Source: Nitrospirota bacterium (GTDB taxonomy: Bacteria > Nitrospirota > UBA9217). Taken from it: a stretch of DNA of 64,000 bases. The notes beneath the pieces were generated by a model that was given only the letters and a program-made list of their open reading frames with translations, was not told where the DNA came from and ran no database searches. The stretch lies in assembly GCA_963749655.1 (NCBI GenBank), contig CAVVOB010000015.1, positions 1 to 64,000 of the forward strand. The letters run 5' to 3'. This document shows positions 26,601-49,086 of the stretch, piece by piece. Each line of letters opens with the position of its first letter. Positions within the stretch are counted from its first letter, which is position 1. Made by a program: the position numbers and the translations under genes.

Positions 26601-26878
26601 GTGAGCGGCTTGCCGCCGTAGGTCGCCGAATAGGATCTCGTTCCCGTACTGCCGTACTTGGTGGTGATTGCGACCACCATCAGGCGGTTGGTGCCGGTGC
26701 CCGCCGAATAGGTAAAGGACTGCGGTGACCGGCCGGTCGTGCTGAGGCTGTTCGTCCAGCTGTCCAGAACGCTCACTGCGGCGGATGCCGTACCGGAGGC
26801 AAAAATAAGGACAAGGGCCAAAACAGCCGCAGAAACCGTCGCCATCGTGTTCAGCTTGTTTACCGTACAATTCTTCAT
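20698..26878 (-). CDS. giant secreted protein (~2060 aa): unknown beta-rich N-domain, Ig, PHP/CehA-like metallohydrolase, Ig, DUF4082-like, Ig2, Ig, deacetylase-like domain, SbsA/Big_5-like Ig, DUF4082-like; several frameshifts 22680-24030
   Basis: Signal peptide (..GTASA|A); GDPHVH and GTDYPC; core paralogous to 10989-20595; joins ORFs 23675-26878, 23178-23780, 22605-22988 and 20698-23181; ATGA overlap with upstream gene. Confidence 0.8.
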
Positions 26879-27570
26879 GCCGGACGCCTCTCTAATTCTT
26901 CAGAGTTTATTCCTTGAACAGATCTTAAAAATCTTGCAGGGTTTCCCACGACGACGCTATTTTCCGCGACTGCGTCCAGGACCACGCTGCCCATTCCCAC
27001 GAGACTGAAATCGCCGACTTTCAAATTTTCGATGATCGAGCTGTTGCTGCCCAGATACGCAGCCTTGCCTACCGTCGTTCCGCCGGAAATGCAGACGCCG
27101 CTCGCGATGCAGGAGTAGTCGCCGATGGAAACATCATGGTTGATCACGCTGTTCGAAAGGATAATCACATGGTTTCCCACGGAAGCATTCGACGCAATGG
27201 TTACCGATGGAAAGACAACAGCCCCGCGGCCGAGCGTAGCTGTTTTCGAGACGGTTGCAGAGGGATGGACAATCGTGACAAACCGGTCGGCAGGAATGCC
27301 GGTCTTCACCAGAATGGCCTCCTTCCGGTAATGATTATTCGGGCTGCCGATGCCGTTCACGAACCAGCAATCCGTCAGTCCCCGTGCGGCGGACAGCGGC
27401 CCCAGAACAGCGATACCCCGGATCGTCGTGCCCTGCATCGCCGGATTATCGTCGAGAAATCCAACGCATTCATAGCGCACCGATTGAGACCGGCTGTTGA
27501 CGTCCTCGACGAGATCGAGGATATCGACGCTGCTGCCGGCGGTGCCGAGAATCACGAGTTTCTTCCGCAC
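26875..27570 (-). CDS. NeuD/PglD-family sugar acetyltransferase
   Basis: LVILGTAG, GFLDDN, hexapeptide repeats, VVVGNPARF. Confidence 0.88.
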   Translation of the reverse strand: MRKKLVILGTAGSSVDILDLVEDVNSRSQSVRYECVGFLDDNPAMQGTTIRGIAVLGPLSAARGLTDCWFVNGIGSPNNHYRKEAILVKTGIPADRFVTIVHPSATVSKTATLGRGAVVFPSVTIASNASVGNHVIILSNSVINHDVSIGDYSCIASGVCISGGTTVGKAAYLGSNSSIIENLKVGDFSLVGMGSVVLDAVAENSVVVGNPARFLRSVQGINSEELERRPA

Positions 27571-27573
27571 GGC

Positions 27574-28764
27574 TCAGCTTTCCTTCCCGATAAGAGCGCT
27601 CTGTTCATCACGCTGCGATGATCTTGCCCTTCCCGCCCGGGTGTCCTTATCCAGGGCTTTTCTGAGGGCCTGCACGACCTGGTCCTGTTCGCCGTCGGTC
27701 AGCCCCACGAACAGCGGCAGCAGGATGGTCTCCCGGGTCGCCCGTTCGGTTTCAGGAAGCGAAAGCCGGGGATACGCTTTGCGGTACACCGGTTCGAGAT
27801 GAATGGCAATGATCCGCCTTGAGGCGACTTCCTGCGAGGCAAGTTCGTGCATGACTTCGCCCTGCGTCATTCTGGTGTGCAGCCGTATGCAATAGGACTG
27901 GTATACATGGTGGTGTCCCTGCGGTTCATGGGGCAGACCCAGACGCTCGTCGCCTCCCAGAACCGTGTTATAGGTCTCGGCGAGCCTGCGCCGCTCGGCC
28001 AGGATCTCGCCGATCCTCATCATCTGGATAGTGCCGACCGCTCCCTGGATATCGGTCATCTTGTAGTTGTATCCGATCTCGGGATAACTCTCGAAGACCA
28101 CGTTGGTCGCGCTGTGCCGGTCGATGGTCGAGACCGACGCTGAATGGGCCCGCATCGCCAGCAGCCGGGCCGCTGCTTCCTCGTTATCGGTCGTTATCAT
28201 GCCGCCTTCGCCGGTCGTCAGGATCTTCCGGGCGTCGAAGCTGAAGCAGGTGAAGTCGCTCAGGCTTCCGATCCGGTCTTCGCCGATCGCCGCACCGAGG
28301 GAAGGAGCCGCATCTTCAATTACCTTCAATCCGTGCTTGCGTGCGATCGTCATGATGGCGGGAATATCGGCCGCAAGTCCGATCTGGCTGACCGGAAGGA
28401 TGGCCGTCGTGCGGGGCGTTATGGCCGCTTCGATCAGGTCCGGGTTGATGTTATACGTTTCTCGGTCGATGTCCACGAACACCGGTTTGGCACCGGCGTA
28501 GAGAATCGCGTTGGCCGTAGCGATAAAGGTAAAGGACGGGCAGATGACCTCGTCGCCCGGCTTGACACCCGCCGCAATCAGCGCCAGATGAAGCGCAGTC
28601 GTACAGCTGTTGACCGCAATGGCGTGTTTTGCGCCGACATAATTCGCTACCATGGACTCGAACCGCTGGACGCGCTTTCCGCACGTAAGCCAGCCGGAAC
28701 GTACTGCCTCGGCCGCTGCTGCGGCCTCCTCTTCTCCTACGCTTAATCGGGTAATGGGAATCAC
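27574..28764 (-). CDS. DegT/DnrJ/EryC1/StrS aminotransferase
   Basis: NSCTTALH, IEDAA, FSFDARKILTTGEGG. Confidence 0.92.
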   Translation of the reverse strand: MIPITRLSVGEEEAAAAAEAVRSGWLTCGKRVQRFESMVANYVGAKHAIAVNSCTTALHLALIAAGVKPGDEVICPSFTFIATANAILYAGAKPVFVDIDRETYNINPDLIEAAITPRTTAILPVSQIGLAADIPAIMTIARKHGLKVIEDAAPSLGAAIGEDRIGSLSDFTCFSFDARKILTTGEGGMITTDNEEAAARLLAMRAHSASVSTIDRHSATNVVFESYPEIGYNYKMTDIQGAVGTIQMMRIGEILAERRRLAETYNTVLGGDERLGLPHEPQGHHHVYQSYCIRLHTRMTQGEVMHELASQEVASRRIIAIHLEPVYRKAYPRLSLPETERATRETILLPLFVGLTDGEQDQVVQALRKALDKDTRAGRARSSQRDEQSALIGKES

Positions 28765-28781
28765 GGTAAAATCCTCCTCGT

Positions 28782-29420
28782 CTAGATTGTTTTGTCCAGT
28801 TTAGCCGCGGCCGTGCCGAGTACTGCCGACAGGCAGGATCCTTGTACGCTTTGACGTCCGGTCACAAATGAAGGATTCTGAAGATACGCCTGCAGGGTCT
28901 TTCCGGAGGTCCGGTCGCGGTCCGAGAGAATGGGATCCCTGACCGGCCAGGCGATCTGTACCTGGGGATCGTTCCACGCAAGGCATGCCTCTGCCGACGG
29001 GTTGTGGTAGTTGGTGCATTTGTACTGCACCTCGGCAAACTCGGAGAGAACGACGAATCCGTGGGCGAACTCCGGAGCCACCAGCACCTGTTTTTTGTTC
29101 TCGGCCGACAGCGCCGCTCCGTACCAGCGGCCGAAGGTCGGAGAACCCACGCGCAGGTCCACGACCACGTCCCAGACCTCGCCGACCGTGCACCGGATCA
29201 GGCGGTGCTGGGGTGCGTCCATGGTCTGATAGTGAAGACCGCGCAGGACCCCCCTACCCGACCTCGAGTGGTTGTCCTGCACGAACGTGTGCTCCAGGCC
29301 GTGCTCTGCAAAGCGTTTTTTGTTATAGCTTTCAAAAAAGAATCCCCGGTGGTCCTGGAAGAAATCCGGCTCTATGACGACGACACCGTCTATACCGGTG
29401 TCGACAACGCGAATATCCAT
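28782..29420 (-). CDS. rfbC: dTDP-4-dehydrorhamnose 3,5-epimerase
   Basis: DHRGFFFESY, VQDNHSRS, LRGLHYQ, FAHGF. Confidence 0.92.
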   Translation of the reverse strand: MDIRVVDTGIDGVVVIEPDFFQDHRGFFFESYNKKRFAEHGLEHTFVQDNHSRSGRGVLRGLHYQTMDAPQHRLIRCTVGEVWDVVVDLRVGSPTFGRWYGAALSAENKKQVLVAPEFAHGFVVLSEFAEVQYKCTNYHNPSAEACLAWNDPQVQIAWPVRDPILSDRDRTSGKTLQAYLQNPSFVTGRQSVQGSCLSAVLGTAAAKLDKTI

Positions 29421-29471
29421 GAACGGCTCCTTGAAAACAGATTTTGAACGGGAAAACGGGTGTTCCGGCCT

Positions 29472-30473
29472 TTACTTCCAGTTGATGCCGATCTCCTGGT
29501 CCAGCAGCAGCGAAACTTCCTCGGGCCGGGTCTTGAACCATCGGATCGTCTTCATCAGCCCTTCTTCGAACGAGACCGACGGCCTCCAACCTGTTATCTT
29601 GCAGAATTCCGTGGAATCGGAGCACAAACGAAGAACGTCGCCGGGGCGCTTCTCGATGTACTCTATGCGCGACGATCCGTTCCCTGCGTACCGGATGATC
29701 ATTTCCGCGATCTCGCTGATCGAGATCTCGAAATTGCTTCCGATATTGAACGTCGAACCAATGGTGTCGTCGCACTTGACCGCCTCTACGATGCCCCTGA
29801 CCGTGTCGCCGACGTATGTGTAGTCGCGCGTCTGGGAACCGTCGCCGAAGACGAGAATGTTTTTGTCGTTGAGCGCCCTGATGATCGACTTGGGGATCAT
29901 TTCCCCGGCGTCGCCTTCATGATGGGACCGGGGCCCGTAGGTATTGAAGGGCCTGATGATGACCGTGTTGAAGCCGTAGGTCTTATAGTAGGCCCTGACG
30001 TAAGCCTCACCCGCCAGCTTGCTTGCCCCGTACACGGTATGGGGAAACGTCGGGTGGTCGGCGGGCATGGGAACATGCTGGGCGGTCCCGTACACCTCCG
30101 ACGAAGAGCAGTGGATGAACTTGTGGACGCCCGCCCGCATCGCCTCCTGCAGCACGACAAGTGCGCCCTCGGCATTGACGCGATGGTTTTCGAAAGGATG
30201 CTTGATCGAATGTCGCACCCCCAGACAGGCGAGATTCAGGACGATGTCCGCGTTCTTCATGGCGTTCTTGACATGAAGAGGATTGGTTATATCGCCGACG
30301 ATCAGTTTGAAGCGGCTGTTGTCTTCGTGCTCATCCAGATTTTCCAGCTTGCCCGTGGACAGATTGTCCAGGACCGTGACCGAGCAATCCTCGTTCATCA
30401 AGGCATCTACCAGATGAGAGCCGATGAATCCCGCACCGCCCGTAATAAGGCAATTCTTGTTTGTCAGCTCCAT
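29472..30473 (-). CDS. NAD-dependent nucleotide-sugar epimerase/dehydratase
   Basis: ITGGAGFIGSH, SSSEVYG, YGASK, RPFNTYGP. Confidence 0.92.
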   Translation of the reverse strand: MELTNKNCLITGGAGFIGSHLVDALMNEDCSVTVLDNLSTGKLENLDEHEDNSRFKLIVGDITNPLHVKNAMKNADIVLNLACLGVRHSIKHPFENHRVNAEGALVVLQEAMRAGVHKFIHCSSSEVYGTAQHVPMPADHPTFPHTVYGASKLAGEAYVRAYYKTYGFNTVIIRPFNTYGPRSHHEGDAGEMIPKSIIRALNDKNILVFGDGSQTRDYTYVGDTVRGIVEAVKCDDTIGSTFNIGSNFEISISEIAEMIIRYAGNGSSRIEYIEKRPGDVLRLCSDSTEFCKITGWRPSVSFEEGLMKTIRWFKTRPEEVSLLLDQEIGINWK

Positions 30474-30555
30474 TTCGTCTCCTGAGCGCTTTTTGGACTT
30501 TGTTCATGTTTCGAATTGACCGGGCCCGTACTCCTGATGCGCACTCCCTAACGGT

Positions 30556-31806
30556 TCAACACCGTCCGACCGCTTTCTGGCACGAGTCCATCTCTTCCGA
30601 CGCTTCCATACTCTGCGTTCGGGAGAGAAACTCCTTGATGGCCTCGGCCACCTGCACCTGCTGCTGTTCCGTCAATCCGGGATACATGGGCAGGGACAGG
30701 ATCTCCCGCGCCATCCGTTCCGAAGCGAGAAGGCTGCCGTGATGGGCGGGAAGGTCAGCGTAAGCCTTCTGCTGATGCAGCGGCACGGGATAGTGGAGCC
30801 CGGTGGAGATCCCCCGCTCCGAGAGGAACGACTGCAGCGCGTCGCGGTCCTGCACCCGGATGACATAGAGGTGATACACCGCCTGGGACCATGACGGCTC
30901 ATAGGGAACGACGACGCCGTCCACGGCCGCGAGCAGTCCGTTGTACCGGCGCGCGTGCTGGACCCGCTGATCGTTGGCATGCTTCAGCCGGCGGAGCTTG
31001 ACGGTCAGGATCCCCGCCTGGATGGCATCCAGTCTGCCGTTGTATCCTTCGCGGTCGTGAAAGTACTTCTTCGCCTGACCGTGGTCCCGGATCATTCTGA
31101 TCGTTTTGGCGATGTTTTCATCGTTCGTGGTGACTGCGCCGGCCTCGCCGCAGGCGCCCAGGTTCTTGCCCGGATAGAAGCTGAATGCGGCCGCAGTGCC
31201 CATGGAGCCCGCCTTCATCCAGCGGCTGTGCCTGCGGGACAGATATTCGGCCCCGTGGGCCTGGCATGCGTCCTCGATCACGATAAGGTGGTACCGCTCG
31301 GCTATTTCCGCTATCCGGTCCATGTCGGCCGTCTGGCCGTATAAATGGACGGGGACGACGGCGCGGACGGTCTTTCCCGTGGCCGAATGGAGCGTGTTGC
31401 CGGTCTCCCGGTCGGTGCAGCACTGCGTCTCCAGGTATTTCTGGAGCTTTGCAGGGCTCATATTGTAGGTCTTCTCGTCGATGTCCACGAAGGCGATTGC
31501 TGCTCCCGCCTGCGTTATGGCCTCGGTCGTGGCGATGAATGTATTCGGGACCGTGATGACCATGTCGCCCTGTTTGACGCCGGAGGCCGTCAGCGCAAAC
31601 CTCAGGGCATCGGTGCCGCTTCCGACGCCGATGCAGTATTTCGCGCCGCAGAAGGCCGCGAACTCCCGCTCCAGCTCTTCCACCATGGGCCCTCCGATGA
31701 ATGCGGCGCTGCGCAGCGACTGCCTGAAGACCTCTACGAGTTGGTCTTCGATCTCGCGGTGCGGCGAGATCAGATCGATAAACGGGATGTGGTTGTTAGG
31801 GTTCAT
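30556..31806 (-). CDS. DegT-family aminotransferase (WbpE-like)
   Basis: IPFIDL, PVHLYGQ, EDACQAHGA, FSFYPGKNLGACGEAG. Confidence 0.92.
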   Translation of the reverse strand: MNPNNHIPFIDLISPHREIEDQLVEVFRQSLRSAAFIGGPMVEELEREFAAFCGAKYCIGVGSGTDALRFALTASGVKQGDMVITVPNTFIATTEAITQAGAAIAFVDIDEKTYNMSPAKLQKYLETQCCTDRETGNTLHSATGKTVRAVVPVHLYGQTADMDRIAEIAERYHLIVIEDACQAHGAEYLSRRHSRWMKAGSMGTAAAFSFYPGKNLGACGEAGAVTTNDENIAKTIRMIRDHGQAKKYFHDREGYNGRLDAIQAGILTVKLRRLKHANDQRVQHARRYNGLLAAVDGVVVPYEPSWSQAVYHLYVIRVQDRDALQSFLSERGISTGLHYPVPLHQQKAYADLPAHHGSLLASERMAREILSLPMYPGLTEQQQVQVAEAIKEFLSRTQSMEASEEMDSCQKAVGRC

Positions 31807-32279
31807 TTTCCAGGCTCCTTATGAATTTTGCAGGATTTCCCGCCACAATGGCGTTCGCCGGAACGTCCTTCGTAACGACGCTTCCCGAACCGACGATGGC
31901 GTTTTCGCCCACGGTAATACTGCATAAGATGGTTGCTCCCGAACCGATTGACGCCCCTTTTTTGATGACCGTGGGGATGACGTTCCAGTCGGCTTCGGTC
32001 TGGAGCGCCCCGTTCCCGTTGGTCGCGCGCGGATACTTGTCGTTGATGAATGTTACGCCGTGGCCGACGAAGACGTCGTCTTCGATGATGACGCCTTCGC
32101 AGATGAACGTATGGCTCTGGATCTTGCAGTTCTTGCCGATCACTGCCTTCTTCTGGATCTCGACGAAGGTGCCGATCTTCGTGTTGTCGTCGATCGAGCA
32201 CCCGTAGAGGTTCACGAAGTTGGCGAGCTTGACGTTCTGTCCGAGCCGGACGTCGTCTGCAAACGGAAAGATATTTCAT
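31796..32279 (-). CDS. hexapeptide N-acetyltransferase (WbpD-like), frameshift near the N-terminus
   Basis: NLYGCSI..KIQSHTFICEGV..FINDKYPRA..AGNPAK; ATG 32279 overlaps upstream TGA. Confidence 0.85.
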
Positions 32280-33280
32280 AGCCTGATCTCTCTCCCCTGA
32301 TGGAGGATCGATTCGTTGCAGGCATCGAGCATTTTGACGACCCTCAATCCCGGCATGGCCGTCGTTGATGGGCGTTGTGTTCTCGGCGATGCACCTGATG
32401 AAATATTCGGTTTCCAGTTTTAAGCGCCTCGCTCGTTCGACCCGGGGGGCGTGCATGTCGCCGGAACGGTAGTTGACCAGCAGGTCGTAGGACGCCTCCT
32501 TGCTCTTACATCCACGCCCTTGTCGTAGATCTTGATCTTTTCGTCCACCTCCAGGTCGTTCCAGACCAGCATCTTCTTCTCGCCGCCGATCAGGGTCGTC
32601 CGCACCTTGACCGGCGAGAGCCAGTTGACGTTGAAGTGGGCGATCATGCTGTCGCTGAAATGGACGGTGACATAAGCCGTGTCCTCCAGGCCGTTGCACG
32701 TGCGCCTTGCCGCAGGCCGCCACGGCAACCGGCTTTTCGTTGATGAGGATAGTCCATGACCGAAAAATCGTGGGGCGCGAGATCCCAAATGACGTTCACG
32801 TCGCGCTGGAACAGACCCAGGTTCACCCTGATGGAATCATAGTAGTAGAGGTCGCCCAGGACCTTTTCGTCGACGAGCTGTTTGATCTTTCTCACCGCGC
32901 CGGTAAAGATGAACGTGTGGTCCACCATGATCATCAGATTCTTTTTCTCCGCCAGTTCGATCAACTCTTCGGCCTGAGCGACCGTCGCGGTAAAGGGCTT
33001 TTCCACGAACACATGCTTTCCGTTGTCGAGCGCCTTCTTGGCCAGATCGAAGTGTGTCGATACGGGAGTGATCACCGCAACGGCGTCGATGTCCGGCGAG
33101 GTCAGGATTTCGCTGCAGTCGCTCGTCGTTGTGATCTGGGGATAGGACCGTTTCGCCCGACTGAGGGACGTCGGGCTTTGATCGCAGACCGACATGGACC
33201 CTGGCCCCTTCAATGGTGCTGAAATTCCTGACGATGTTCGGACCCCAGTATCCGTACCCTATGATGCCGATGTTGATCAT
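32276..33280 (-). CDS. Gfo/Idh/MocA oxidoreductase (WbpB-like), several frameshifts
   Basis: IGIIGYGYWGPNIVRN, HVFVEKP, WDLAPHD, WLSPVKVR. Confidence 0.85.
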
Positions 33281-33313
33281 GTTTCCTCCTCGCTGCATTG
33301 GTCGCGTCCGCGG

Positions 33314-34354
33314 TCAATACGCTCCTTTGCCTGATACCATGGCCCAGGGTGTCTTTAAAAGGATCTTGATGTCCATCCACAGTGTCCAGTTCCTTGCATA
33401 CTGCAGATCGAGACGGACCATCTCGTCGAAGGTCGTCGAACTCCTTCCGCTCACCTGCCAGAGTCCGGTGATGCCCGGCTTCACCTCCCGGACGCGCCGC
33501 CGGTGCCAGCTTTCGTATTTTTCGAGCTCATAGGGAATAGGGGGACGCGGTCCCACCAGCGACATCTCGCCTTTCAGCACGTTCACGAACTGGGGCAGCT
33601 CGTCAAGGCTCGTCTTCCGCAGGAACATTCCCACGGACGTGATCCGGTCATCTTTCGTGATCTTGTACACTTTTGTTTCTTTGTTGTTGCCTTCCGTGTC
33701 GCACCCGGTCTTGTTCTCGATGAGGTTGTAGACGAACTCTTTGTGCCGGTCCGCGCTCTGATTGGCGTACATGCTTCTGAACTTCAGAAACTGGAATTTC
33801 TTCTCATATTGCCCCACCCGCTCCTGACGGAAGATCACCGGCCCGCGCGAAGTGAGCTTGATGCACAGGGGAATCAGGAGAAAACAGGGGGAGAAGAGGA
33901 TCAGCCCTGTGAGGCTGCCGATGATGTCCATGGTGCGCTTCAGCCGGAGTGCGCCATTGCGGTCACGGCTTTTTTTCGGCAGGTCAGGATAAAAGGTAAA
34001 CCGCGGCGAATCGACCGTCTTCATCGACCGGCCTTCATCAGGATACCGGTGAAACGATACGATGATCATGCCTGCCTGTTCGGAATGCAGTTTATCGACC
34101 AGTTCACTGTGGATCTTTTTCTGCAGGGTGTTGGTCTCGAAACTGTTCATCTCCGTAAATATGACACCCAGCACGGAGCCGTAACGGAACCAGCCCTTTA
34201 CATCGGTAACGCGCGTAAGGATCGAGAGCGCCTCCAGGGTGCCTTTCACGGTTGCGAGCCTTTTTTGCGGGTTCTGCATGGGCGAAAAATCCAGGGTCAT
34301 TACAAGGAACGGCCGTCCCGAACGCTCGCTTCGTTTTCTCTCGAACGCGAGCAT
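33314..34354 (-). CDS. priming sugar (polyprenyl glycosylphospho)transferase with N-terminal degenerate GGDEF-like domain
   Basis: [57 protein letters not shown]; true start may be slightly upstream across a frameshift. Confidence 0.9.
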
Positions 34355-34549
34355 ATCGAGAAAGGACTCCTCGCTGTAGCAGTCGTGCTGTTCCGGCGGA
34401 TAGTGACGACGTTCCTGATCCGGATGATTCCTGGTCCCTGTTTATCATTTCCAGTCTCATTGTTGTTCCTCTTCCCGATCACTTCTCGGTCTGCAGTTGT
34501 CGCCGGCGACCTCGGCCCGGCGGCCGATTTCCGCCCGGAGGCCCTATTC

Positions 34550-35854
34550 CTAAAACTCCTTCGTGATCCTGATCGCTGCCCGGTTGTTCATATAATTGTT
34601 ATCGACCGCGACAGGAGATGCGGATCGAATGTATGAATAGTCGAGCGACAGAATCAGGTCTCTCGTGAGATAGTGCTTGAATGCACCTCCGTAGATCTGC
34701 GTCCTCGTGCGGACTGACGGGCTCAAGGTCCGGTCTTCGAGGTCCTGGTACTGGGCGGACAGGGCAAGAGACGTGCGGCCCGAGAACCGATGATTGAGCG
34801 ACGCCCGGTAATCCGTGCTCGAAGCCGTCGGAACGTTGCTTCTCGCGTCACGGTAATCGTTCCGCGTTGCGCTCACTGCAAAGTCCGAACGCGACAGGAT
34901 ATGGGAAAACGACACCGTATAGGTGTCCACCTGTGTGGAAATGGTGAGCGGGTCCTCGGGAAACGACCGCTTCCAGTCGAGGGACAGGGTCGTTGCAGAG
35001 ATCTTTTCGGATATCCCCGCGCTGCCGCTGACGTATTCCCGGCTCGGCGATTGGTCATAATCGAGATGACCCGTGCCTATGGTGGCGTAAAGGAAGGAGT
35101 CTTTATCGAATTCGTACCGGGGGCCGGCATAAACGTCTGTCTGCTCGTAATTTTCAACCTCGTTGCGGTCCCTGGTTTCCTGCACACCGACTGATATCGT
35201 GAGCCGTGACGACGGGGTCCACGTCGCTTCGGCGAACAGGGTCGCGTCCTTGCGGTCCACGGCCGACGCGCTCGCTGATGACGAAATATGCGTATAGGTT
35301 GTTTCACGGTACTGAAAGCCCGTGGTCACGGCCACCAGGTCAGACGGGCGCAGTACCGCGAACGGACGGACGGAAGCGATGTTTTGTTCGGCCTGATTGA
35401 CGACAAGGCTTTGCTGCGTGTAGTCCCGCTCGATATTGAGCGATACCCTGCTCAGATCATCGGCGGCCTCGAGAAACAGCAGGTTGTCGAAAAGGACCGT
35501 CCTGTTCTTCAATTTCAGCGTCTGTGCGGAGTCGTCCCCGACGGTGCCCCGCTCGAAGTGCCGGTAGTCCAGTGAATAATCGGCGTCCCAGGTCCAGAAT
35601 GGGGATTGGTAGTGGAATACGATTGCCGGGACAGCGTGCGTTATCGTGTCTTCCTTCCCGTTGACATGTTCCAGAAGGATATTGTCGTTATATTCTTCGC
35701 CGAGAGTAATGGACGGTTTCATGGTGAACTCCGCTGCGACCGCCGGTCCGGACCAGAACAGGACGGCCGCTGCAAACACTGCTGCGAGCGACGCGTACGG
35801 CCTGCCGGCGGAAGCAAAGCGCTTCAGACTACTGTCCTTCGCTTGACGTGACAT
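34550..35854 (-). CDS. EPS-associated outer-membrane beta-barrel (TIGR03016/EpsL-like)
   Basis: Signal peptide, PSITLGEEYNDNI, amphipathic strands, terminal Phe; position in locus. Confidence 0.78.
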   Translation of the reverse strand: MSRQAKDSSLKRFASAGRPYASLAAVFAAAVLFWSGPAVAAEFTMKPSITLGEEYNDNILLEHVNGKEDTITHAVPAIVFHYQSPFWTWDADYSLDYRHFERGTVGDDSAQTLKLKNRTVLFDNLLFLEAADDLSRVSLNIERDYTQQSLVVNQAEQNIASVRPFAVLRPSDLVAVTTGFQYRETTYTHISSSASASAVDRKDATLFAEATWTPSSRLTISVGVQETRDRNEVENYEQTDVYAGPRYEFDKDSFLYATIGTGHLDYDQSPSREYVSGSAGISEKISATTLSLDWKRSFPEDPLTISTQVDTYTVSFSHILSRSDFAVSATRNDYRDARSNVPTASSTDYRASLNHRFSGRTSLALSAQYQDLEDRTLSPSVRTRTQIYGGAFKHYLTRDLILSLDYSYIRSASPVAVDNNYMNNRAAIRITKEF

Positions 35855-36731
35855 TGAGAGCGTCGTCGCTGCTTCCGGATTTTGCGCCCGGCACCGTTCC
35901 GGACCGATAGTAATAGGGATAGCGGCTCTGTGACGGATACTTTTTCACATTGTTCAAAACCGATCCGAGAATATTGTAGTCCTGGATCAGCGACAGCGCC
36001 TGCGCGCCCGATTTGCGGTCCGATCGCCCCGCCTGCGCGACGAAAATAACGCCGTCGACGAAAGCGCAAAGGGAAAGACTGTCGGCCGCGGCCAGGAGCG
36101 GGGACGTGTCGAAAATAACATAGCGGTCGCGGTACCGTTCCTTGATCTCGAGAACCATCGATTTCATCCGTGACGAATTGATGAGCTCTGCGGGGTTCTC
36201 CGGCGGTTCACCGGCGGCAATAACGACGAGCTTGCCGATGCCGGACTTGATCATGAGCTTGGGCAATTCGACGCGCCCCGCCAGATAATCGCTCAATCCG
36301 AATTGCGGCTTCAGCCCCAGATAGGTATGCACCGACGGTTTTCTTAAATCGGCGTCCACGAGCAGCACGGTATGGTCCAGTTCATGGGAGATGGATACGG
36401 CGAGATTGATGGCCGTAACGCTCTTGCCTTCGCTCGGATGAGCGCTGGTGACCATGATCGTGTTGTGCCCGTCCTTCTTCGTGCCGGCGAGCACGCGGAC
36501 GCGGAGCTTCCGGTATTCCTCTGAGGCATAACTATAGGGATCGGTTATGGTGACGATATGGCTGTTCACGTTTGCGACGTCGACGCCGCCTTCGCCTGCG
36601 TCAAAGACCGAGGAAGGAAACGCATGGACAATGCCCCGCGCTGATGACGGGACGCCTGCGCTGACCGGCGCCGGAGCCTTGACCGATCTCATTTTTACGG
36701 CTTTTTCAAGTGCCCGTTCAATCCTGCTCAT
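35829..36731 (-). CDS. polysaccharide biosynthesis tyrosine autokinase (CpsD/CapB, XrtA-associated type)
   Basis: MSRIERALEKA, EEYRKLR, Walker A SAHPSEGKS, LLVDADLRKP, IFDTSP, Tyr-rich tail YPYYY. Confidence 0.9.
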   Translation of the reverse strand: MSRIERALEKAVKMRSVKAPAPVSAGVPSSARGIVHAFPSSVFDAGEGGVDVANVNSHIVTITDPYSYASEEYRKLRVRVLAGTKKDGHNTIMVTSAHPSEGKSVTAINLAVSISHELDHTVLLVDADLRKPSVHTYLGLKPQFGLSDYLAGRVELPKLMIKSGIGKLVVIAAGEPPENPAELINSSRMKSMVLEIKERYRDRYVIFDTSPLLAAADSLSLCAFVDGVIFVAQAGRSDRKSGAQALSLIQDYNILGSVLNNVKKYPSQSRYPYYYRSGTVPGAKSGSSDDALNVTSSEGQ

Positions 36732-36742
36732 AGAGTGCCCCG

Positions 36743-38320
36743 TCAACCTCGAAAAATGCCGATTCCCAGATACCGGGATGCCGCCTCTCCGATCAGAACG
36801 AGTATGATCAGCAGGAGGTAGGCGCCGGAAGCGACAAAAACCTTCTTGTCGCGGGCCGCTTCGATCTGTATATCCTCTTCGGTGATAATAGCCGGGATCG
36901 ATGCCAGAACGGGGATCCGCAGCCCCTTCTCTACATCGTCCACATTCTTGAAAGACCTGTCAAAATAGTCGAGAGCTGCCGCCGCGGCTATTCCCGATGC
37001 GACGCCCAGGAACAATCCCATGAGAATCATTCGAATACGGTTGGGGCTGACGGGAACACGCGGCATGACCGGCGGATCGACGATGCGGAGACGCGTCGTC
37101 TTGTCGGCGAGCTCGAGATCTTTCGTAACCCGTGCGCTTTCCCGCTTCTGGATCAACTCGTCGTAGACCCGCTGATAGGCGTTCCGGTCCCGCTGGATCT
37201 TGGACCACTCTTCCTGCTCTTTCGGCATCCGCCCCAGGTCCGCCCGCCCCGTGTTCTGCAGTCTTGTCAGCTCGTCGAGCCGGGCTTTGAGCGACTCCAT
37301 CTCCGATTCGGTCTTGGAAAGCTCTTCCTTCATCTGGCGGTACACGGGATTCATGGCCTGCATTTCCCCGCCCCCTTCGCCCTTCTTTTTATCACTTTTG
37401 ATGCCGAGCTCCATCTGTCTCTGAAGCTGATCGATCTCGCTCTTGATCCGTATGACATCGGGATAATCTTCGGTATACTTGCTCAGAAGAAGCATGAGCT
37501 GGTTGTTCAGGTAATTCAGCCTGCCTGCCGGCGAATCGTCGTGAGAAACAAAGGCGACGGTCATTTCCTTTTCGCCCGACAGCTGCTTTCGAAGGCTCTC
37601 CCGTTTTCGCTGAAGCTCCTTCAGCCTGATCTCCGTATCGATCCGACCTGTCTGGTAATTCTCGATCCTTGCGAGAAGCGTGGCTTCACTCTGGGGAACC
37701 ATGGTGGGGTTCTTTTCGCGAAACTCGCGAATGGCCTTGTCGGAATCCTCCAGCTTTTTCTTATACTCATTGAGCTGTTCGTCGATGAAAGCATAGGCGC
37801 CGAGGGCATCGTTGATCTGGAGGCCCGTGCTTTCGGCGATGAACTCATTCACCAGCGCTTCCAGCATGGTGTACACCTCTTTGGGCTCCCTCCCCTGATA
37901 GGATATCTGGAACAGGTTCTGGGTCCGTCTGTCTCCCACGCTGCTGATGGCGGTCACCTTGAGATCCTTCTGGATCGAGGCAATCCTGCCGTCATATTCG
38001 ATGGTGTCCTTGGAGCTTTCGATCCGGTCAAGCTTTTTGAGGACACGCCCGATGATCGTCCTGCTCGTTATCGTGTTCCTCAGATCAATGAGGCTCTGAT
38101 CTCCCGGAGGAACGCCGACGCCCTGGATGAGGGGATTCAACAGCGCGCTTTTCTCTATGGTTACGGAAACCGATGCCTCGTAGGTCTTCGGGCACAGGTA
38201 GCTCCCCCAGGTGAACAGCGAGACCACGAGCAGAGCAGTGGCCAGGGCTATATACCGCCTCTTCCAGATCAGGTCCCGGTACCGGTTGATATCGAATCCG
38301 GTTGGTTCTTCTTCGTGCAT
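36743..38320 (-). CDS. polysaccharide chain-length determinant (Wzc N-domain, XrtA-associated type)
   Basis: Two TMs flanking a coiled coil, YTEDYPDV, IVDPPVMP..PVSPNR. Confidence 0.88.
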   Translation of the reverse strand: MHEEEPTGFDINRYRDLIWKRRYIALATALLVVSLFTWGSYLCPKTYEASVSVTIEKSALLNPLIQGVGVPPGDQSLIDLRNTITSRTIIGRVLKKLDRIESSKDTIEYDGRIASIQKDLKVTAISSVGDRRTQNLFQISYQGREPKEVYTMLEALVNEFIAESTGLQINDALGAYAFIDEQLNEYKKKLEDSDKAIREFREKNPTMVPQSEATLLARIENYQTGRIDTEIRLKELQRKRESLRKQLSGEKEMTVAFVSHDDSPAGRLNYLNNQLMLLLSKYTEDYPDVIRIKSEIDQLQRQMELGIKSDKKKGEGGGEMQAMNPVYRQMKEELSKTESEMESLKARLDELTRLQNTGRADLGRMPKEQEEWSKIQRDRNAYQRVYDELIQKRESARVTKDLELADKTTRLRIVDPPVMPRVPVSPNRIRMILMGLFLGVASGIAAAAALDYFDRSFKNVDDVEKGLRIPVLASIPAIITEEDIQIEAARDKKVFVASGAYLLLIILVLIGEAASRYLGIGIFRG

Positions 38321-38329
38321 GGACTGCTC

Positions 38330-39182
38330 CTAAAAAAAGCTGCTGTTGACCCGTACGATATCGCCCGGTTTTAAAACGACATTCTTCGCGATCTTTCCGT
38401 TCATTACATCCTTAAGCGGCACCTTGATGTTCTTTACGACTTCATCTTCTTTACGGACGATGACGACCCCGTTCCGGCTGGCATATTCAGTAAAGCCGCC
38501 TGCGCTCAGTACGGCATCGAGCGCCGTCATGCCCTCGGCGAACGGGACGAGACCGGGCGTCTTTACTTCACCGACGACGCGAATCCGGGTGGTGATTCCG
38601 CCGGGAAGATAGATGATATCGTTGGGCTCCAACTTGACATCCTGGCTCAGATCGCCTTTCGTCATAAGTCTCAAAAAATCCACGGCAAGCCTTTTTCCGT
38701 CCCGTGATACGAAAGCGTCCTGCATCTGTACGCTGTCGAGGGACCCCAGCTGTGCAAGCATCTGGAGGAGCGTGGTGTCCCGCTTCAGCGTGTACTGACC
38801 GGTGGGAAACGATCCGTTTCCGGACGGGGCCGTCCGGGAAAGCCCTTCGCCGAAAATGTAGATTCTTGAAGCTGTTGACCGCCGTGACGAGAACGCTTAC
38901 GACGGGCGCTTTCATAAACTTCGCAAGATCCTTCTCCAACGCCACCTTGAGCTCTTGCGGCGTTTTGCCGGCCGCCCGTACATCGCCGACGAGCGGCATG
39001 GAAACCATGCCGTCAGGCCGAACAGGGACATGAACGCTCAGTTCTGCATTTCCCCAGACCGAAATCTGAAGCATGTCCTCTTCGCCGATGATATAGGCCC
39101 GGGCCGTGCCCGGTGCTGCAACGGCCGAGATGAGCACGAAGAGCAGTACGGAGAATCGGATGCTTGGGATTATTCTTTGCAT
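38330..39182 (-). CDS. wza: polysaccharide export protein (Wza/SLBB), frameshifted
   Basis: YIIGEEDMLQISVW, VRPDGMVSMPLVGDV, VVGEVKTPG, AGGFTEYA, LKPGDIV. Confidence 0.85.
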
Positions 39183-39405
39183 AATGTCTCCCGTCCGGTT
39201 CTCAGTGGGAACCGGACTTTTATCTTTCACCAACCACCGTTTGCTCCGGAAGCGAGCGCCATGGACGGATGTTGTTCCTTTATGGCCGGATATAGCTTCG
39301 CCCCTTCAGTTACAGAGGCTTTCTGCAACATGATGCAAACACGCATTTCTTGTGGGAGGCGCGGCCCTGACATCGGACCCTTTCTACGAAGCCGACGATT
39401 GCTTT

Positions 39406-40071
39406 CTATACCGTTTCTATATCCTGGGGCGAAATAGCGACCGAAACCGACCGGCCGAGCAATTCGATATTCACCTGGAACAGATACCCGTCGTCCTTCC
39501 TGAAAAGGGTTCCCTCGGCTGTTTTCAAGGGACCGTTCTTTACCCGCACACGGCATCCCTGCAGAAATTCAGGATACAGGTTGATCGCGATACCGCTGTC
39601 GACGAGGAGCCGCAGAGACTCGACTTCTTCATTTGCGATCGCCGTCGGATGGCCGGGCTCCAGTGAGACGAAACAGGCGACCCCGCGCGTCTGAAGGACT
39701 TTGATGAACAATTCAGCGTGACGCGGTATTCGCACAAACAGATATCCCGGGAAAAGGGGCTGCTCGAGGTGTTTTTTTCTGTCCTGCCATTGCCTGACGC
39801 TGGTTACGGTCGGCAAGAATGACGTGATGCCTTTTTTCATCAATTCACAGGCCGCGACAAATTCATGCCTCGACTTTACCGCGACCGCATACCAGTTCTC
39901 CAGACAAGCATGGTCGTCCGTCCCGTCAAGGGACTCCCCGGCAGGCGCGGCAACGGCGGCCTCATCCGACTGTTCGAAAACATCCGGATCGCTCCCGCTC
40001 AGTTCCGCTGCCGGTGCAGCGCATTCTGCGCTGTTCGCAGCAGCCGGCTTGTCATCAACATCTGTCTGCAT
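39406..40071 (-). CDS. UpxY-family transcription antiterminator (NusG paralog)
   Basis: WYAVAVKSRHE, RQWQDRKK..PLFPGYLFV, KOW-like RVRVKNGPL; AGGAAAGG before ATG 40071. Confidence 0.88.
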   Translation of the reverse strand: MQTDVDDKPAAANSAECAAPAAELSGSDPDVFEQSDEAAVAAPAGESLDGTDDHACLENWYAVAVKSRHEFVAACELMKKGITSFLPTVTSVRQWQDRKKHLEQPLFPGYLFVRIPRHAELFIKVLQTRGVACFVSLEPGHPTAIANEEVESLRLLVDSGIAINLYPEFLQGCRVRVKNGPLKTAEGTLFRKDDGYLFQVNIELLGRSVSVAISPQDIETV

Positions 40072-40099
40072 GAGCCCCGCCTTTCCTGTCATCAGCTGC

Positions 40100-40985
40100 C
40101 TAACTGGATTTGAGCGCGTTGATAAGCGCCGTGCAGTTCAATGATCGATCGGAACCGTTGTCTTTGCCCCAGAAATGTCCTTCAAAGTCCAGGTCGCCGG
40201 CGATTTCCTGCACCATGTCGATATCGACATCCCTCCGCTCTTCATTGAAGGCCGTGAGCAGAAGAAAATCACACAAGATGTTCAGGAGCCTCGGAATTCC
40301 GCGACTGTAGCGAAAAAGATGATCGATGCATCCTTCCCCGAAGGTTACCGCACCCCTGTTTCCGGCGATCTCCAGCCGGTGGAAGATATACTGTTCAGTC
40401 TCCTCCCGCGTAAGAGGATGGATACGGCAGCTGACGCTGATCCTCTGTCTCAGCTGTCTCAGCTCGGGAAGCGCCAGACTGTTCCGCAGTTCCGGCTGGC
40501 CGACCAGAATGATTCGAAGCAGCTTGGTCGTGGCGGTTTCGAGATTCGACAGCATTCTGATCTCCTCGAGGAGGTCGGGCTTGAAGTTCTGCGCCTCGTC
40601 GACGATCAGCAGGGACTGGTTGCCCTTTGCGTACTGCTCGATCAGGAAATCATAGAGTTCTTTCAGCAGCTTGACCTTGTCTTTTCCCTTGCTGTCGAGG
40701 CCGAAATCGTCGTTGATCATGGCAAAAAGCTGCTCCGAATTGACGTTCGTGTTGAAGATCTTCGCAAACACCACGTTCTCGTCAAGACGTTTTAACGAGA
40801 TCGCTGAGGAGCGTTGTCTTGCCCGAGCCGACGTCGCCGGTAAGAAGTATGAATCCCGCCTTTTCCCGTATGCCGTAGTTCAGGTATTGCATCGCCTTCT
40901 TATGCGTCTTGCTCATAAAAATAAAATCCGGATTCGGCACAAGCTCGAAGGGCTTTGTTCTTAAATTGAAGAAGGACTCGTACAT
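40100..40985 (-). CDS. ExeA/GspA-like AAA ATPase (XrtA-associated type), frameshift near 40790
   Basis: MYESFFNLRTKPFELVPNP, GDVGSGKTT, IVDEAQN, LVGQPEL, LRQRI, GIPRLLN. Confidence 0.88.
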
Positions 40986-44943: not shown

Positions 44944-47013
44944 ATGCATCATGATCGGAGCAGGACAAGGAAAGACGACGGAGGGTTTGTGTTGAACGAA
45001 ATGAAAGGCGACCGCCTGCCGGACCTCTTCAGGACCGCCACGCTGCAGGACTATTTCGCCACCTTGTCCGAAAGTCTCGGCTTCCATCTGAGCGTCTACT
45101 CTTCGAAGGGAGAGCGGATATTCGTCCCCCGGGGCAAGTATCACCTGTGCCAGCGGCTCCGCGACACAGCCCCGGGATTCCCGGACCACTGCGACAGCTA
45201 CTGCCGCCCGTTCCTGATGAAGACGCTCGCCACGGGCAAACCTGACGTGTTCACCTGTTACACAAAGATCGTGAGCTTCGCCCTTCCCATAGAATATCTC
45301 GACGAAAAGGCCGTGATCCTGGGACAGGGTTCCTTTGCCACGCAGCAGGACTATCATGACGGCATGAAAATAGCGATGGACGCAGGTCTCGACGCAGTGC
45401 AGACCGAGCCATACGTTTATACCACGCTCGCCAAAGCCTGGGACGTCTGCGGTTTTGTCGATGAATCCATCCGGACGGTCCTGAAAAGCTGCCGGGAGGC
45501 TTCCGCTCTGAGAAAAGAATTCGACACCATGAAGCGGGCCATCGGTTCATGGAGCACCGCGGCCGGAGAACGTCCGGAAACGCTTTATCGGCAGCTGGTT
45601 CAGGACCTTTCCACCCTGATCCACAGCGACGGCATCGCCGTATTCATGCTGGACAGGAAACAGGGCAGGTTCACGGCACTGTCCGATCATGCAAAAGGCA
45701 ACGGGACGTCGGGTGATATCAGCATCAGTGAAGACGGTGAGATCGCCCAGAGTTTGAGCTCCGGGAAGCCTTTCGTGTTCTCGCTGGGCCCCCTGCCGCT
45801 GCCGGACGCAAACCGCCAGGAACGCCAGGGAGGTCTCTATTTCTTCCCGGTCATCGCAAACAACAGGCTGGAAGGCATCCTGTGCATCGCCGCCCGGGAC
45901 CTGGCAGAAACGGAAACTCAGATCATCACGGTCTTCTGCCGCAAGACCGCTCTTTCCATGGAGAACCAGCGTCTGCACCAGGAGCTCTATCGCAAATTCG
46001 AACGGTTCGCCGCCATAGCGGACGTCACGAAGTCCATAACGCAGATCACGGATTTCAGCACGCTGCTCCGGACCATCCTCGATGAGTCGGCCAGTCTGCT
46101 CAAGGCCGAGCAGGGCTCCTTGATGCTCATTGACCGCGAGACCGACGATCTTCTCCTTTCGGCAAAGAAAGGCATCGTCGACGGGGTAACGGACAAACTC
46201 CGGATCATTCGGGGCGAAGGCATTGCGGGCAGGGTGGCGGAATACGGCGAGGCCATCCTGGTCGAGGACGTGGAGAACGACCCCCGGACCAGGCAGAAGA
46301 ACAGGAGCCACTACAAGACCCGTTCGTTCGTAAGCGTGCCGATCAAGATCGAGGACCAGATCATCGGCGTGCTCAATCTTTCCGACAAGACATCGGGAGA
46401 AGCGTTCGATGAGGAGGACCTGAAACTCATCCAGTCCTTCACGACCCATGCAGCTGTTGTCATGGACCGGAACATCTTTCAGAACAAGACCGAGGTGCTC
46501 GAGAAGCTGTCCATTACCGATCCTCTGACCGGCCTCATGAACCGGCGTTATCTCAACGAACGTTTGAAGCGCGAGCTGGCCAGGGCTGAACGCCATGGGC
46601 ACCATCTGAGCCTGCTGATGGTAGACATAGACGGATTCAAACAGTGCAACGACACCTTCGGCCATCCCTTCGGGGACACCGTGCTCAGGAACGTGGCCGA
46701 CATCCTCACCAACACCGTCCGCACCATGGATATCGTCGCGCGCTGCGGCGGCGACGAGTTCATTGTGATCCTGCCCGAGACCGCCGAGCCCGTAGCCGTC
46801 GATATTGCTACCCGATTACTGCACAGCCTGGAGAAGAGCATCGAGGTCGCGGCGGGAGTGGCCGAAGGCAGTCACTATACGCTCACGGCCAGCATCGGCG
46901 TGGCCTGCTATCCCCAGGATGGGGAGTCCATGGAGATCCTTCATGAGCATGTCGACCAGGCGCTCTACCGGGCGAAGAACAAGGGAAAAAACCGGGTGGA
47001 AGTGTTTCGGTAA
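44944..47013 (+). CDS. diguanylate cyclase, PocR-like + GAF + GAF + GGDEF
   Basis: TDPLTGLMNRR, DIDGFKQCNDTFGH..GD, RTMD I-site, GGDEF; Cys-bearing PocR-like N-terminus; start may be TTG 44992. Confidence 0.92.
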   Translation: MHHDRSRTRKDDGGFVLNEMKGDRLPDLFRTATLQDYFATLSESLGFHLSVYSSKGERIFVPRGKYHLCQRLRDTAPGFPDHCDSYCRPFLMKTLATGKPDVFTCYTKIVSFALPIEYLDEKAVILGQGSFATQQDYHDGMKIAMDAGLDAVQTEPYVYTTLAKAWDVCGFVDESIRTVLKSCREASALRKEFDTMKRAIGSWSTAAGERPETLYRQLVQDLSTLIHSDGIAVFMLDRKQGRFTALSDHAKGNGTSGDISISEDGEIAQSLSSGKPFVFSLGPLPLPDANRQERQGGLYFFPVIANNRLEGILCIAARDLAETETQIITVFCRKTALSMENQRLHQELYRKFERFAAIADVTKSITQITDFSTLLRTILDESASLLKAEQGSLMLIDRETDDLLLSAKKGIVDGVTDKLRIIRGEGIAGRVAEYGEAILVEDVENDPRTRQKNRSHYKTRSFVSVPIKIEDQIIGVLNLSDKTSGEAFDEEDLKLIQSFTTHAAVVMDRNIFQNKTEVLEKLSITDPLTGLMNRRYLNERLKRELARAERHGHHLSLLMVDIDGFKQCNDTFGHPFGDTVLRNVADILTNTVRTMDIVARCGGDEFIVILPETAEPVAVDIATRLLHSLEKSIEVAAGVAEGSHYTLTASIGVACYPQDGESMEILHEHVDQALYRAKNKGKNRVEVFR

Positions 47014-48460: not shown

Positions 48461-48514
48461 TCATCTTCTCGCTTTAAAGCCTGATTTGATAATCCTCATT
48501 GGATCTTGAGGAAT

Positions 48515-48543
48515 ATGATAACATGGGATCCGGGTACGGTCAA
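48515..48543 (-). promoter_or_regulatory. sigma70-type promoter
   Basis: TTGACC-17-TATCAT with extended TG. Confidence 0.55.
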
Positions 48544-49086
48544 TGGTATAAGAAAAGGTCCTCTCTCTGCAAATCAGCTGCAAGTCCTGACAATTTGAAG
48601 CAGCCTAACCTTGCTCGCTCTGCCTTGTTCCAATCGGACTCACGGGATTATAAAATCGTACTTCTTCGTCAACTCTCTCTATCCATCGGCCCGCTTTCCG
48701 GGGACATGGCTAGGAAAAGGATTACCGATTTTTTCGGTTCTTCATTCTGCTTCTCATAGCATGAAAATACCACGTGATCAGCCCGATGTCCTTAAGTAAA
48801 AATTCGGCATGAAGTTTACAGCAATGCCAAATGCGATCGTTTGGCTTGAACGCTTCTGCCTCGTGTCGATTGGAAGGAAACCCTCCGGGAAAAACCAGAC
48901 TGCGGAATACGGAATGAACGCTGATCTGCTTCATGCAGGTCGATTATATTAGTTTGCAGCTTATTGTCAAGCAGCGTGTTTATACCCATCACGCAGGAAA
49001 CCAAATCGGAATGCAACCCGGGGATATCCCAGGCAAATGCAATTACAACAGCTTCAAGAAGTTGCAGCAATCGGCACTGCATTCAT

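Follow-up and report, generated by a model that had tools for sequence, protein, structure and literature searches.

What would a priming glycosyltransferase do with an N-terminal domain that looks like a diguanylate cyclase whose active site has gone? The question is raised by a minus-strand gene of a Nitrospirota bacterium (UBA9217; assembly GCA_963749655.1, contig CAVVOB010000015.1, positions 1 to 64,000), in a stretch of 64,000 nucleotides that we refer to as the window. An earlier note, made from the sequence of the window alone, had described the gene as a priming glycosyltransferase fused to a degenerate GGDEF domain that keeps the RxxD motif of the inhibitory site (I-site), and had proposed that cyclic di-GMP (c-di-GMP) gates the first committed step of a Wzx-dependent pathway. 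We computed the fold of this domain, its kept and lost residues, its occurrence and place in related genomes, and a model of its dimer. The dead GGDEF domain is a candidate c-di-GMP receptor that would activate priming, a reading to which we give an even chance on the sequences and models described here. We infer the identity of the ligand, the sign of its effect (activation) and dimerisation as the mechanism.

The two halves of the protein

The C-terminal half of the listed open reading frame (ORF; Table 1) matches Pfam Bac_transf (PF02397) at ORF residues 139-340 with an E value of 2.9e-68. We built a full-length AlphaFold model on a 46-row alignment (predicted local distance difference test, pLDDT, 76.2) and compared it with the Protein Data Bank (PDB) using Foldseek. 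Ranks 1-4 are PglC and WbaP, the top fold match being PglC 8e37 (E 6.4e-12), and WbaP 8t53 gives E 2.4e-9. The sole hydrophobic helix pair of the model spans residues 159-197, and there is no four-helix N-terminal bundle. With Bac_transf, a re-entrant helix and an Asp-Glu pair, and without the bundle, the catalytic half is a PglC-type small monotopic phosphoglycosyl transferase, and an ordinary one; the earlier note had identified the priming enzyme correctly. The ORF reaches 297.6 bits against the cut-off of 295.55 of NCBIfam TIGR03025 (exopolysaccharide polyprenyl glycosylphosphotransferase subfamily, EPS_sugtrans), a marginal membership, as a relative of 381 residues (P0014) scores 284.4 and lies under that cut-off. 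The window protein falls far below TIGR03013 (EpsB_2, the XrtA/PEP-CTERM transferase) with 153 bits against 393.35, and the NCBIfam WbaP and WcaJ models also reject the ORF.

The N-terminal half is harder to place. No Pfam model matches ORF residues 1-138, even at E ≤ 10, and no Pfam or NCBIfam model covers the degenerate GGDEF domain. The earlier note had relied on a by-eye alignment with the PocR-GAF-GGDEF cyclase encoded in the window, in which two strings of the protein were set against LKRELARAERHGHHLSLLMVDI and LTNTVRTMDIVARCGGDEFIVILPE of the cyclase. Both proteins do hold the strings compared, and the 7/22 ungapped identities of the first pair are correct; the second pair sets 26 residues against 25 and requires one gap, and once that gap is made the R and D of RxxD are in register. 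When the N-terminal 164 residues were compared with the cyclase by BLASTP, the best E was 0.62, in a segment other than that of the note.

With family profiles and fold searches, unlike with pairwise comparison, the GGDEF likeness is significant. Scored on residues 1-135, a search retrieved 113 proteins; almost all have about 381 residues, and Bac_transf is their sole precomputed Pfam domain. The 164-residue stretch, run with phmmer against 1.84 billion cluster representatives (50% identity), returned 1241 at E ≤ 0.001 and 324 at E ≤ 1e-10. Three alignments were used, namely the 46-row alignment (A1), 74 diverse members (A2) and a closer 9-row alignment (A3). Fifteen of the 16 matches with E ≤ 10 between the A2 profile and PDB sequences are GGDEF chains, the best being 5euh_A (E 2.7e-4), and hhalign places the same profile on residues 525-676 of the window cyclase (137 columns, E 1.8e-4, probability 48.6%). 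Pfam GGDEF (PF00990) is found in 14 of 49 relatives at E ≤ 0.1 and exceeds its gathering score of 23.8 bits in two (P0129, 28.0 bits; P0172, 24.6 bits). The register is constant across relatives, protein residues ~22-150 lying on profile positions ~3-131; matches stop near 131 of 161, so that the domain lacks the final helix and strand of a complete GGDEF domain. A six-frame search of the window with a hidden Markov model (HMM) of the domain family recovered the transferase (E 6.3e-53) and, weakly, the GGDEF domain of the cyclase (E 3.8e-4), and found no second copy of the domain in the window.

A domain-only AlphaFold model on 74 rows (pLDDT 83.1; predicted template modelling score 0.74; core blocks 90-96) agrees with the full-length model on the secondary structure. 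Residues are numbered here along the extended N-terminal stretch of 164 residues, and subtracting 29 gives ORF numbering. The elements are α1 (24-41), β1 (45-51), α2 (58-75), β2 (81-86), β3 (90-95), α3 (about 100-117) and β4 (127-133), followed by a low-confidence linker. All matches of the domain model listed among Foldseek ranks 1-50 are GGDEF domains, led by 6khu (E 2.5e-5; target-normalised template modelling score 0.69) and including 5euh, 3ign and 6tts, entries described as c-di-GMP-bound. With the full-length model, all matches listed after the PglC and WbaP ranks are GGDEF as well. The first ~135 residues are predicted to fold as a GGDEF domain, and the assignment made in the earlier note is borne out by these models, in which only GGDEF is matched outside the transferase, and by the profile-to-PDB matches.

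Neighbours in the ESM Atlas are clusters of hypothetical proteins of 161-179 residues, and in one set 11% of the members carry Pfam GGDEF. Within the GGDEF superfamily the sensor half forms a new branch that is catalytically dead and truncated after β4. In the linker that follows, F150, Y151 and P152 (window 33986-33994) are each at least 90% conserved in A1. hhalign sets this F-Y-P opposite an ALY in the last helix of the full GGDEF domain, and it may act as a latch.

Residues kept and lost, and a predicted pair

To follow the domain through related loci we used one genome per species and one peptide pattern of the domain, which gave 500 matches, 258 confirmed relatives and 80 loci that were kept. 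Conservation was then read from 343 distinct sequences aligned to the family HMM: the 113 from the residue 1-135 search, the 150 best phmmer cluster representatives, 83 ORFs from the related loci and the window protein, minus duplicates. Only four positions are strictly invariant, R77, D80, G83 and W84 (RxxDxxGW; 343/343 each). In α1, E34 is kept in 337, R37 and R40 in 339 each and S41 in 326; these α1 counts are inflated, because the pattern used to fetch 83 of the 343 rows includes the α1 motif, a bias that leaves the RxxDxxGW counts unaffected. G92 is found in 334, E97 in 327 and a basic residue at position 109 in 326 (K in 208, R in 118). The former metal-binding Asp position (D51) holds D in only 254 of 343.

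RxxD sits where an I-site should be. HMMER aligns it onto RPAD of 5euh and RQSD of 3ign, and its R and D are also invariant in the 46-row and 74-row alignments. An Arg in α3 and one in α1 complete the I-site of PleD, in which R313 of α1 forms the secondary I-site; by residue counting, K/R109 and R37 may be the equivalents of PleD R390 and R313. The hallmarks of an active diguanylate cyclase (the GG(D/E)EF turn, the metal-binding Asp and the N/D guanine contacts of the KxxND...GHxxGD loop) have not been kept: the turn reads RYGSVL, the position of the GHxxGD loop is a six-residue gap in the HMM alignments, and the Asp position is variable. The earlier note had stated both the loss of the GGDEF signature and substrate residues and the retention of RxxD at the I-site position, and both statements hold, the second across all 343 relatives. 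Its GGDEF register needs correction, in that the HMM alignments put the old motif position at R57-Y58-G59-(S60)-V61-L62 (ORF numbering), two residues off the by-eye register.

A decayed active site beside an invariant I-site characterises the degenerate GGDEF receptors: PelD, PopA and others like them have retained RxxD and are receptors for c-di-GMP. We looked at how the conserved residues are arranged in a complex prediction of two domain copies with two c-di-GMP, on the domain's own alignment and with the ligand itself unscored. The dimer has an interaction prediction score from aligned errors (ipSAE) of 0.57 (runs 0.57, 0.51 and 0.59), and the best of three controls reached 0.00. In calibration, 20 of 30 proteins with structures solved as pairs reached the ipSAE mark, against 1 of 23 solved as single chains. 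At least 33% of the contacts are common to the runs, and partner pLDDT is at least 70. The interface is symmetric and in both copies is made of residues 33, 36-37, 40-41, 77-79 and 96-97, which are the conserved residues; the α1 arginines of one copy face RxxD and the T-E pair (96-97) of the other. The model supports pairing without demonstrating it.

Two further arrangements bear on pairing. In three relatives (P0115, P0118 and P0122) the transferase is preceded by two copies of the domain in tandem, each with its RxxDxxGW, which points to a domain that works as a pair. Free-standing copies of 167-216 residues occur in four loci (L002:7328-7831, L014:4242-4799, L038:7028-7678 and L009:323-832), in the first three just upstream of or near the fusion gene, and could be partners of the fused domain.

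On these grounds the following mechanism can be proposed. The transferase would place the first sugar-phosphate on the lipid carrier of an exopolysaccharide pathway of the XrtA/PEP-CTERM and Wzx type. Going by the likeness to PglC, the domain, which lies ahead of the re-entrant helix, would be on the cytoplasmic face. Its I-site residues (RxxD, the α1 arginines and the basic α3 residue) would be kept for binding, with the invariant Gly-Trp gained beside them. Bound at RxxD, intercalated c-di-GMP would reach across to the α1 arginines of a second copy; this bridging would bring two transferase molecules together as a pair, or else change how the domain is oriented on its linker, and at high c-di-GMP the priming reaction would be switched on. 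In its widest form the proposal is of a large, unannotated family of priming transferases gated directly by c-di-GMP, with an intercalated c-di-GMP dimer bridging the RxxD/Trp site of one dead GGDEF domain to the α1 arginines of another and so pairing PglC-type enzymes that are otherwise monomeric. We regard this dimer-bridging version as doubtful, and as less certain than the receptor reading.

The same residues could serve a domain that handles no nucleotide at all and works purely in protein-protein contacts, by homodimerisation or by docking on the tyrosine autokinase or ATPase; RxxD, the α1 arginines and the T-E pair would then be conserved as a directly salt-bridged interface. The predicted interface consists of exactly these residues, and its closest pairs are protein-protein (40-77, 96-37 and 40-97). 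Tandem-domain relatives occur; of the 80 loci, 71 have a tyrosine autokinase gene, which in most of these directly precedes the transferase gene; and the free-standing copies beside the fusion gene in L002, L014 and L038 would fit heterodimer partners. Even so, R and D are strictly invariant at the exact I-site position while the remainder of the nucleotide site has decayed, as in known receptors, and the dimer job contained c-di-GMP, so that it gives no sign that the interface forms without ligand. We consider a pure protein module somewhat unlikely.

The gene in its locus

The neighbouring marker genes identify the locus, at the level of sequence, as an exopolysaccharide locus of the XrtA/PEP-CTERM type. 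Upstream of the transferase come, in order, a TIGR03016 outer-membrane protein, a TIGR03018-like tyrosine autokinase and a TIGR03007 XrtA chain-length determinant, and further upstream a TIGR03027 export protein (Wza-like, in two ORFs), an UpxY antiterminator and a TIGR03015 ATPase with its N-terminus in another frame. TIGR03007 scores 401 against a cut-off of 278.85 and TIGR03016 119.9 against 90.85; TIGR03018, TIGR03015 and TIGR03027 match under their cut-offs, and the genes of the last two are split or truncated. Downstream lie a Gfo/Idh/MocA oxidoreductase (frameshifted), a hexapeptide acetyltransferase, a DegT aminotransferase, an SDR dehydratase, an RmlC-like epimerase, a second DegT and a NeuD-family acetyltransferase. 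Going by the oxidoreductase, aminotransferase and acetyltransferase genes among these, a candidate sugar donor would be a di-N-acetylated UDP-hexose. A MOP-family flippase is encoded at 1984-3701.

Table 1. Positions of the features discussed, in nucleotides of the window
Feature	Position	Strand	Basis or remarks
Listed ORF: degenerate GGDEF domain, linker and small monotopic phosphoglycosyl transferase	33314..34354	-	346 residues; stop included
Phosphoglycosyl transferase catalytic domain with re-entrant helix	33335..33940	-	Pfam, alignment A1, Foldseek
Asp-Glu pair of SLDELPQ	33599-33604	-	D280 and E281, invariant in A1
Low-confidence linker with conserved F-Y-P, up to the membrane re-entrant helix	33962..34033	-	pLDDT <50 at 137-149 and 152-160
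Folded core of the degenerate GGDEF domain (α1-β1-α2-β2-β3-α3-β4)	34043..34381	-	Residues 21-133 extended, -8 to 104 ORF
RYGSVL at the GG(D/E)EF turn position, no acidic pair	34169..34186	-	HMM alignments to 5euh and 3ign; hhalign to cyclase
Invariant Gly-Trp, two residues past RxxD	34190..34195	-	ORF G54 W55; invariant in A1, A2 and A3
RVTD, the RxxD at the I-site position	34202..34213	-	Codons CGC GTT ACC GAT; ORF R48-D51, extended R77-D80
ERKRSERS in helix α1	34319..34342	-	ORF E5-S12; R8 and R11 nearly invariant, in the predicted dimer interface
Broken upstream part of the gene	34355..34460	-	In-frame residues up to 34441 homologous to the N-termini of relatives
Shine-Dalgarno-like GGAAGAGGA	34467..34475	-	6 nucleotides before ATG 34460; read from the sequence
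Upstream genes of the operon-like block	34550..40774	-	NCBIfam matches; synteny in related loci
Downstream sugar-modification genes	26875..33310	-	Pfam/NCBIfam
PocR-GAF-GGDEF protein with intact GGDEF and RTMD (RxxD) motifs	44944..47013	+	Pfam GGDEF, E 5.7e-50

This arrangement recurs. The 80 loci come from Nitrospirota, Acidobacteriota (Terriglobia, Sulfotelmatobacter) and syntrophic deltaproteobacteria (Syntrophorhabdus, Syntrophaceae, Syntrophobacteraceae), and the closest match among them is only 59% identical to the window domain. Their recurrent order is UpxY, export protein, chain-length determinant, ATPase, autokinase, transferase, oxidoreductase, acetyltransferase and aminotransferase, so that the transferase gene sits between the tyrosine autokinase (71/80) and the oxidoreductase that comes after it (70/80). 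The chain-length determinant is found in 62 of the loci, the acetyltransferase in 60, the export protein in 55-57, the ATPase in 54, the aminotransferase in 53-54, UpxY in 43 and the outer-membrane protein in 6. The domain is fused to the transferase in 78 of the 83 domain-bearing ORFs; related genomes as a rule have the fusion, and have it at a fixed position in loci of the XrtA/PEP-CTERM type. Among the 150 best cluster representatives the transferase domain is complete in 13, cut off in 33 and missing from 104, with a median of 19 residues after the domain, and many of these representatives are probably fragments.

The polysaccharide block of the window is headed by the UpxY-family (NusG/RfaH-like) antiterminator (39406-40092, minus strand), and the recurrence of UpxY suggests operon-specific antitermination. 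The PocR-GAF-GGDEF protein is probably an active, product-inhibited cyclase, going by its motifs, and with its intact GGDEF domain the organism encodes c-di-GMP synthesis.

The start of the transferase gene is damaged in the window. Homologues are mostly 381 residues long, some 35 more than the listed ORF; the in-frame window residues ...HDCYSEESFLD before M1 align with their N-termini, and tblastn picks up the window from homologue residue 25-27. Followed upstream, the homologous frame runs into two in-frame stops at 34442-34447; from there to the ATG at 34354 it has no ATG, GTG or TTG. The ATG at 34460 is in another frame, 106 nucleotides before ATG 34354, and 89 nucleotides separate it from the end of the upstream outer-membrane-protein gene (34550); with 105 nucleotides in place of the 106 the product would have 381 residues, the commonest homologue length. 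There is a one-base frame problem near 34390-34441, and the window copy lacks its true start. The extent of 34040..34380 given for the domain in the earlier note is close to that of the folded core, at about 34043-34381; the domain begins upstream of the listed ATG.

Such a break might be real, leaving the window copy non-functional or N-terminally shortened in a decaying locus, an explanation compatible with any of the other readings. It would account for the stops and the absence of a start before ATG 34354, with a well-placed ATG and ribosome-binding site out of frame at 34460. It would also fit the neighbours: the oxidoreductase (32279-33310), the export protein (38333-39233, aligned over 38333-39149) and the ATPase (40181-40985) each align to their orthologues in two frames, and the flippase is spread over two ORFs. 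Yet the genes are otherwise well conserved (54-70% identity to orthologues), and single-frame breaks in such number resemble assembly indels more than decay; indels seem the likelier cause. The ORF from ATG 34354 moreover retains all conserved motifs and has a GAGGAG 12 nucleotides upstream. We judge a decayed copy unlikely.

Other features of the window stand apart from the transferase. Between the sugar genes and the flippase lie very large ORFs of up to 2736 residues (3770-26878, minus strand) that carry immunoglobulin-like, DUF4082, OmpL47-type barrel and CehA/McbA metallohydrolase domains. No XrtA gene, PEP-CTERM sorting signal or other NCBIfam name was found on the 11 ORFs scanned, the giant immunoglobulin-like ones, and no further XrtA/PEP-CTERM search was made. 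An ORF at 47078-48460 (minus strand) has a weak Cas12f1-like/TnpB zinc-finger match (E 2.5e-7) and adjoins the stretch of lowest guanine-cytosine content in the window (48000-50000; 0.468 against about 0.58); together they may be the remnant of a mobile element. A response regulator with an N-terminal zinc ribbon is encoded at 51008-52099 (minus strand). Its receiver matches many models, EpsW among them weakly (48 bits against 200); this match is generic, and no link to the transferase was seen.

The receptor reading, its weight and its known relatives

Several points weigh against the proposal that the domain is a c-di-GMP receptor acting through a dimer. Pairwise likeness to the window cyclase is not above chance, so that the by-eye alignment alone carries no weight; the hhalign probability is only 48.6%, and the window protein itself has no Pfam GGDEF match even at E ≤ 10. 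An invariant Trp stands where canonical domains have an Arg, and the site is thus not a plain I-site. The dimer may have passed through the model's memory of solved GGDEF dimers crosslinked by c-di-GMP, and the job was unlike those of its calibration, with a small molecule riding along and an alignment of its own. Among the contacts of the model, R40-E97 and R37-T96/E97 might be salt bridges made directly, without any ligand. According to passages of one paper (PMC12802240), small transferases of the PglC type function as monomers, which does not favour a dimer switch. The window copy has lost its start to the frame problem. A canonical GGDEF ORF, sought with phmmer and the window GGDEF domain, lies within 8 kb in 0 of the 80 loci, which rules out a conserved linkage to a cyclase gene within that range; the window cyclase, 10.5 kb from the transferase on the opposite strand, lies beyond it.

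The ligand might also be another nucleotide signal, such as 3'3'-cyclic GMP-AMP (cGAMP), pGpG or a linear guanine nucleotide. The invariant Gly-Trp past RxxD is foreign to canonical I-sites, and the Foldseek matches include 6d9m, a Geobacter GGDEF. The phyla in which the domain family is found, deltaproteobacteria and Acidobacteria among them, also have Hypr GGDEF enzymes, the producers of cGAMP. There is, however, no positive sign of any other ligand among our results, and to our knowledge the RxxD sites characterised so far all bind c-di-GMP, so that we consider this alternative very unlikely. That the N-terminus is a remnant of the Rossmann-like cytoplasmic domain of WbaP-type enzymes, as an alignment of residues 43-346 to positions 171-445 of TIGR03025 might suggest, is ruled out, because TIGR03025 aligns P0014 only from residue 162 and both fold searches give only GGDEF there.

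For polysaccharides made by synthase-dependent routes, it is well described that c-di-GMP acts directly, at the post-translational level. How Wzx/Wzy-dependent pathways are controlled at that level is called incompletely understood in passages of a 2025 paper (PMC12802240). With a sensor fused to the priming enzyme, control would be exerted at the step that commits both the nucleotide sugar and the shared lipid carrier. It is a large family, with 1241 clusters at 50% identity (E ≤ 0.001) and 258 confirmed loci from a single peptide pattern in species-representative genomes, and it occupies a fixed position in the main exopolysaccharide locus of the Acidobacteriota, which are a dominant phylum in soil. 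If the proposal holds in its widest form, soil and sediment phyla (Acidobacteriota, Nitrospirota and syntrophic deltaproteobacteria) would gate the first lipid-linked step of a Wzx/Wzy-type pathway by c-di-GMP, and a phosphoglycosyl transferase would for the first time be seen to contain a second-messenger switch.

Two known cases limit the novelty of the control point. In Myxococcus xanthus the response regulator EpsW acts on the transferase EpsZ; according to passages of PMC12802240, a Wzx/Wzy pathway is here too controlled post-translationally through its priming transferase, and promotion of a dimer is the proposed mode of action. As described there, EpsW is a separate phosphorylated receiver, EpsZ is a large WbaP-type enzyme, and no nucleotide messenger is involved (PMC12802240). 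In Caulobacter crescentus, c-di-GMP binds and activates HfsJ, an early glycosyltransferase of a lipid-linked polysaccharide pathway (PMC9980756, in part). HfsJ is a glycolipid glycosyltransferase and not a priming phosphoglycosyl transferase, and the passages concerned describe no GGDEF-like domain in it (PMC9980756). Small transferases can carry regulatory domains such as receivers (passages of PMC12802240, citing O'Toole et al. 2021). No GGDEF-transferase fusion is described in the literature searched; the survey of transferase fusions by O'Toole et al. 2021, which lay outside that search, may list the architecture.

Within the same kind of locus, TIGR03013 (EpsB_2) has a related catalytic domain, and the window family has the dead GGDEF domain in place of its N-terminal part. 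The catalytic half is closest to Campylobacter PglC (8e37, 8g1n), with which it shares 36% identity (Foldseek E 6.4e-12), the Asp-Glu pair and the lack of a four-helix bundle. PglC has no N-terminal domain, whereas here some 165 residues of sensor domain and linker precede the re-entrant helix.

For the sensor half, the best sequence and fold matches are active cyclases with I-sites, namely GcbC (5euh), the Marinobacter protein 3ign, DgcB (6tts) and WspR (3i5a, 3i5c). They have RxxD and the α1 R-x-x-R-S in the same register as the window family, and in the predicted dimer RxxD of one copy faces α1 of the other, as in cyclase dimers crosslinked by c-di-GMP. Unlike them, the domain has neither GG(D/E)EF nor GHxxGD, keeps the metal-binding Asp in 254 of 343 sequences, and lacks the last ~30 profile positions.

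In function, the closest known systems by analogy would be receptors of the PelD type. PelD of Pseudomonas aeruginosa, PopA and CdgA are degenerate GGDEF receptors, and PelD is a membrane protein with transmembrane, GAF and GGDEF parts that serves a synthase-dependent pathway. PelD is absent among the Foldseek matches listed, and the domain described here differs from it in being truncated after β4 and in its invariant Gly-Trp. PelD is also a separate protein; the domain described here is part of the priming transferase itself, by fusion in cis, and the pathway is of the Wzx type. What the two would have in common is a GGDEF fold without an active site, a retained RxxD, a position at the cytoplasmic face of the membrane and an exopolysaccharide as output.

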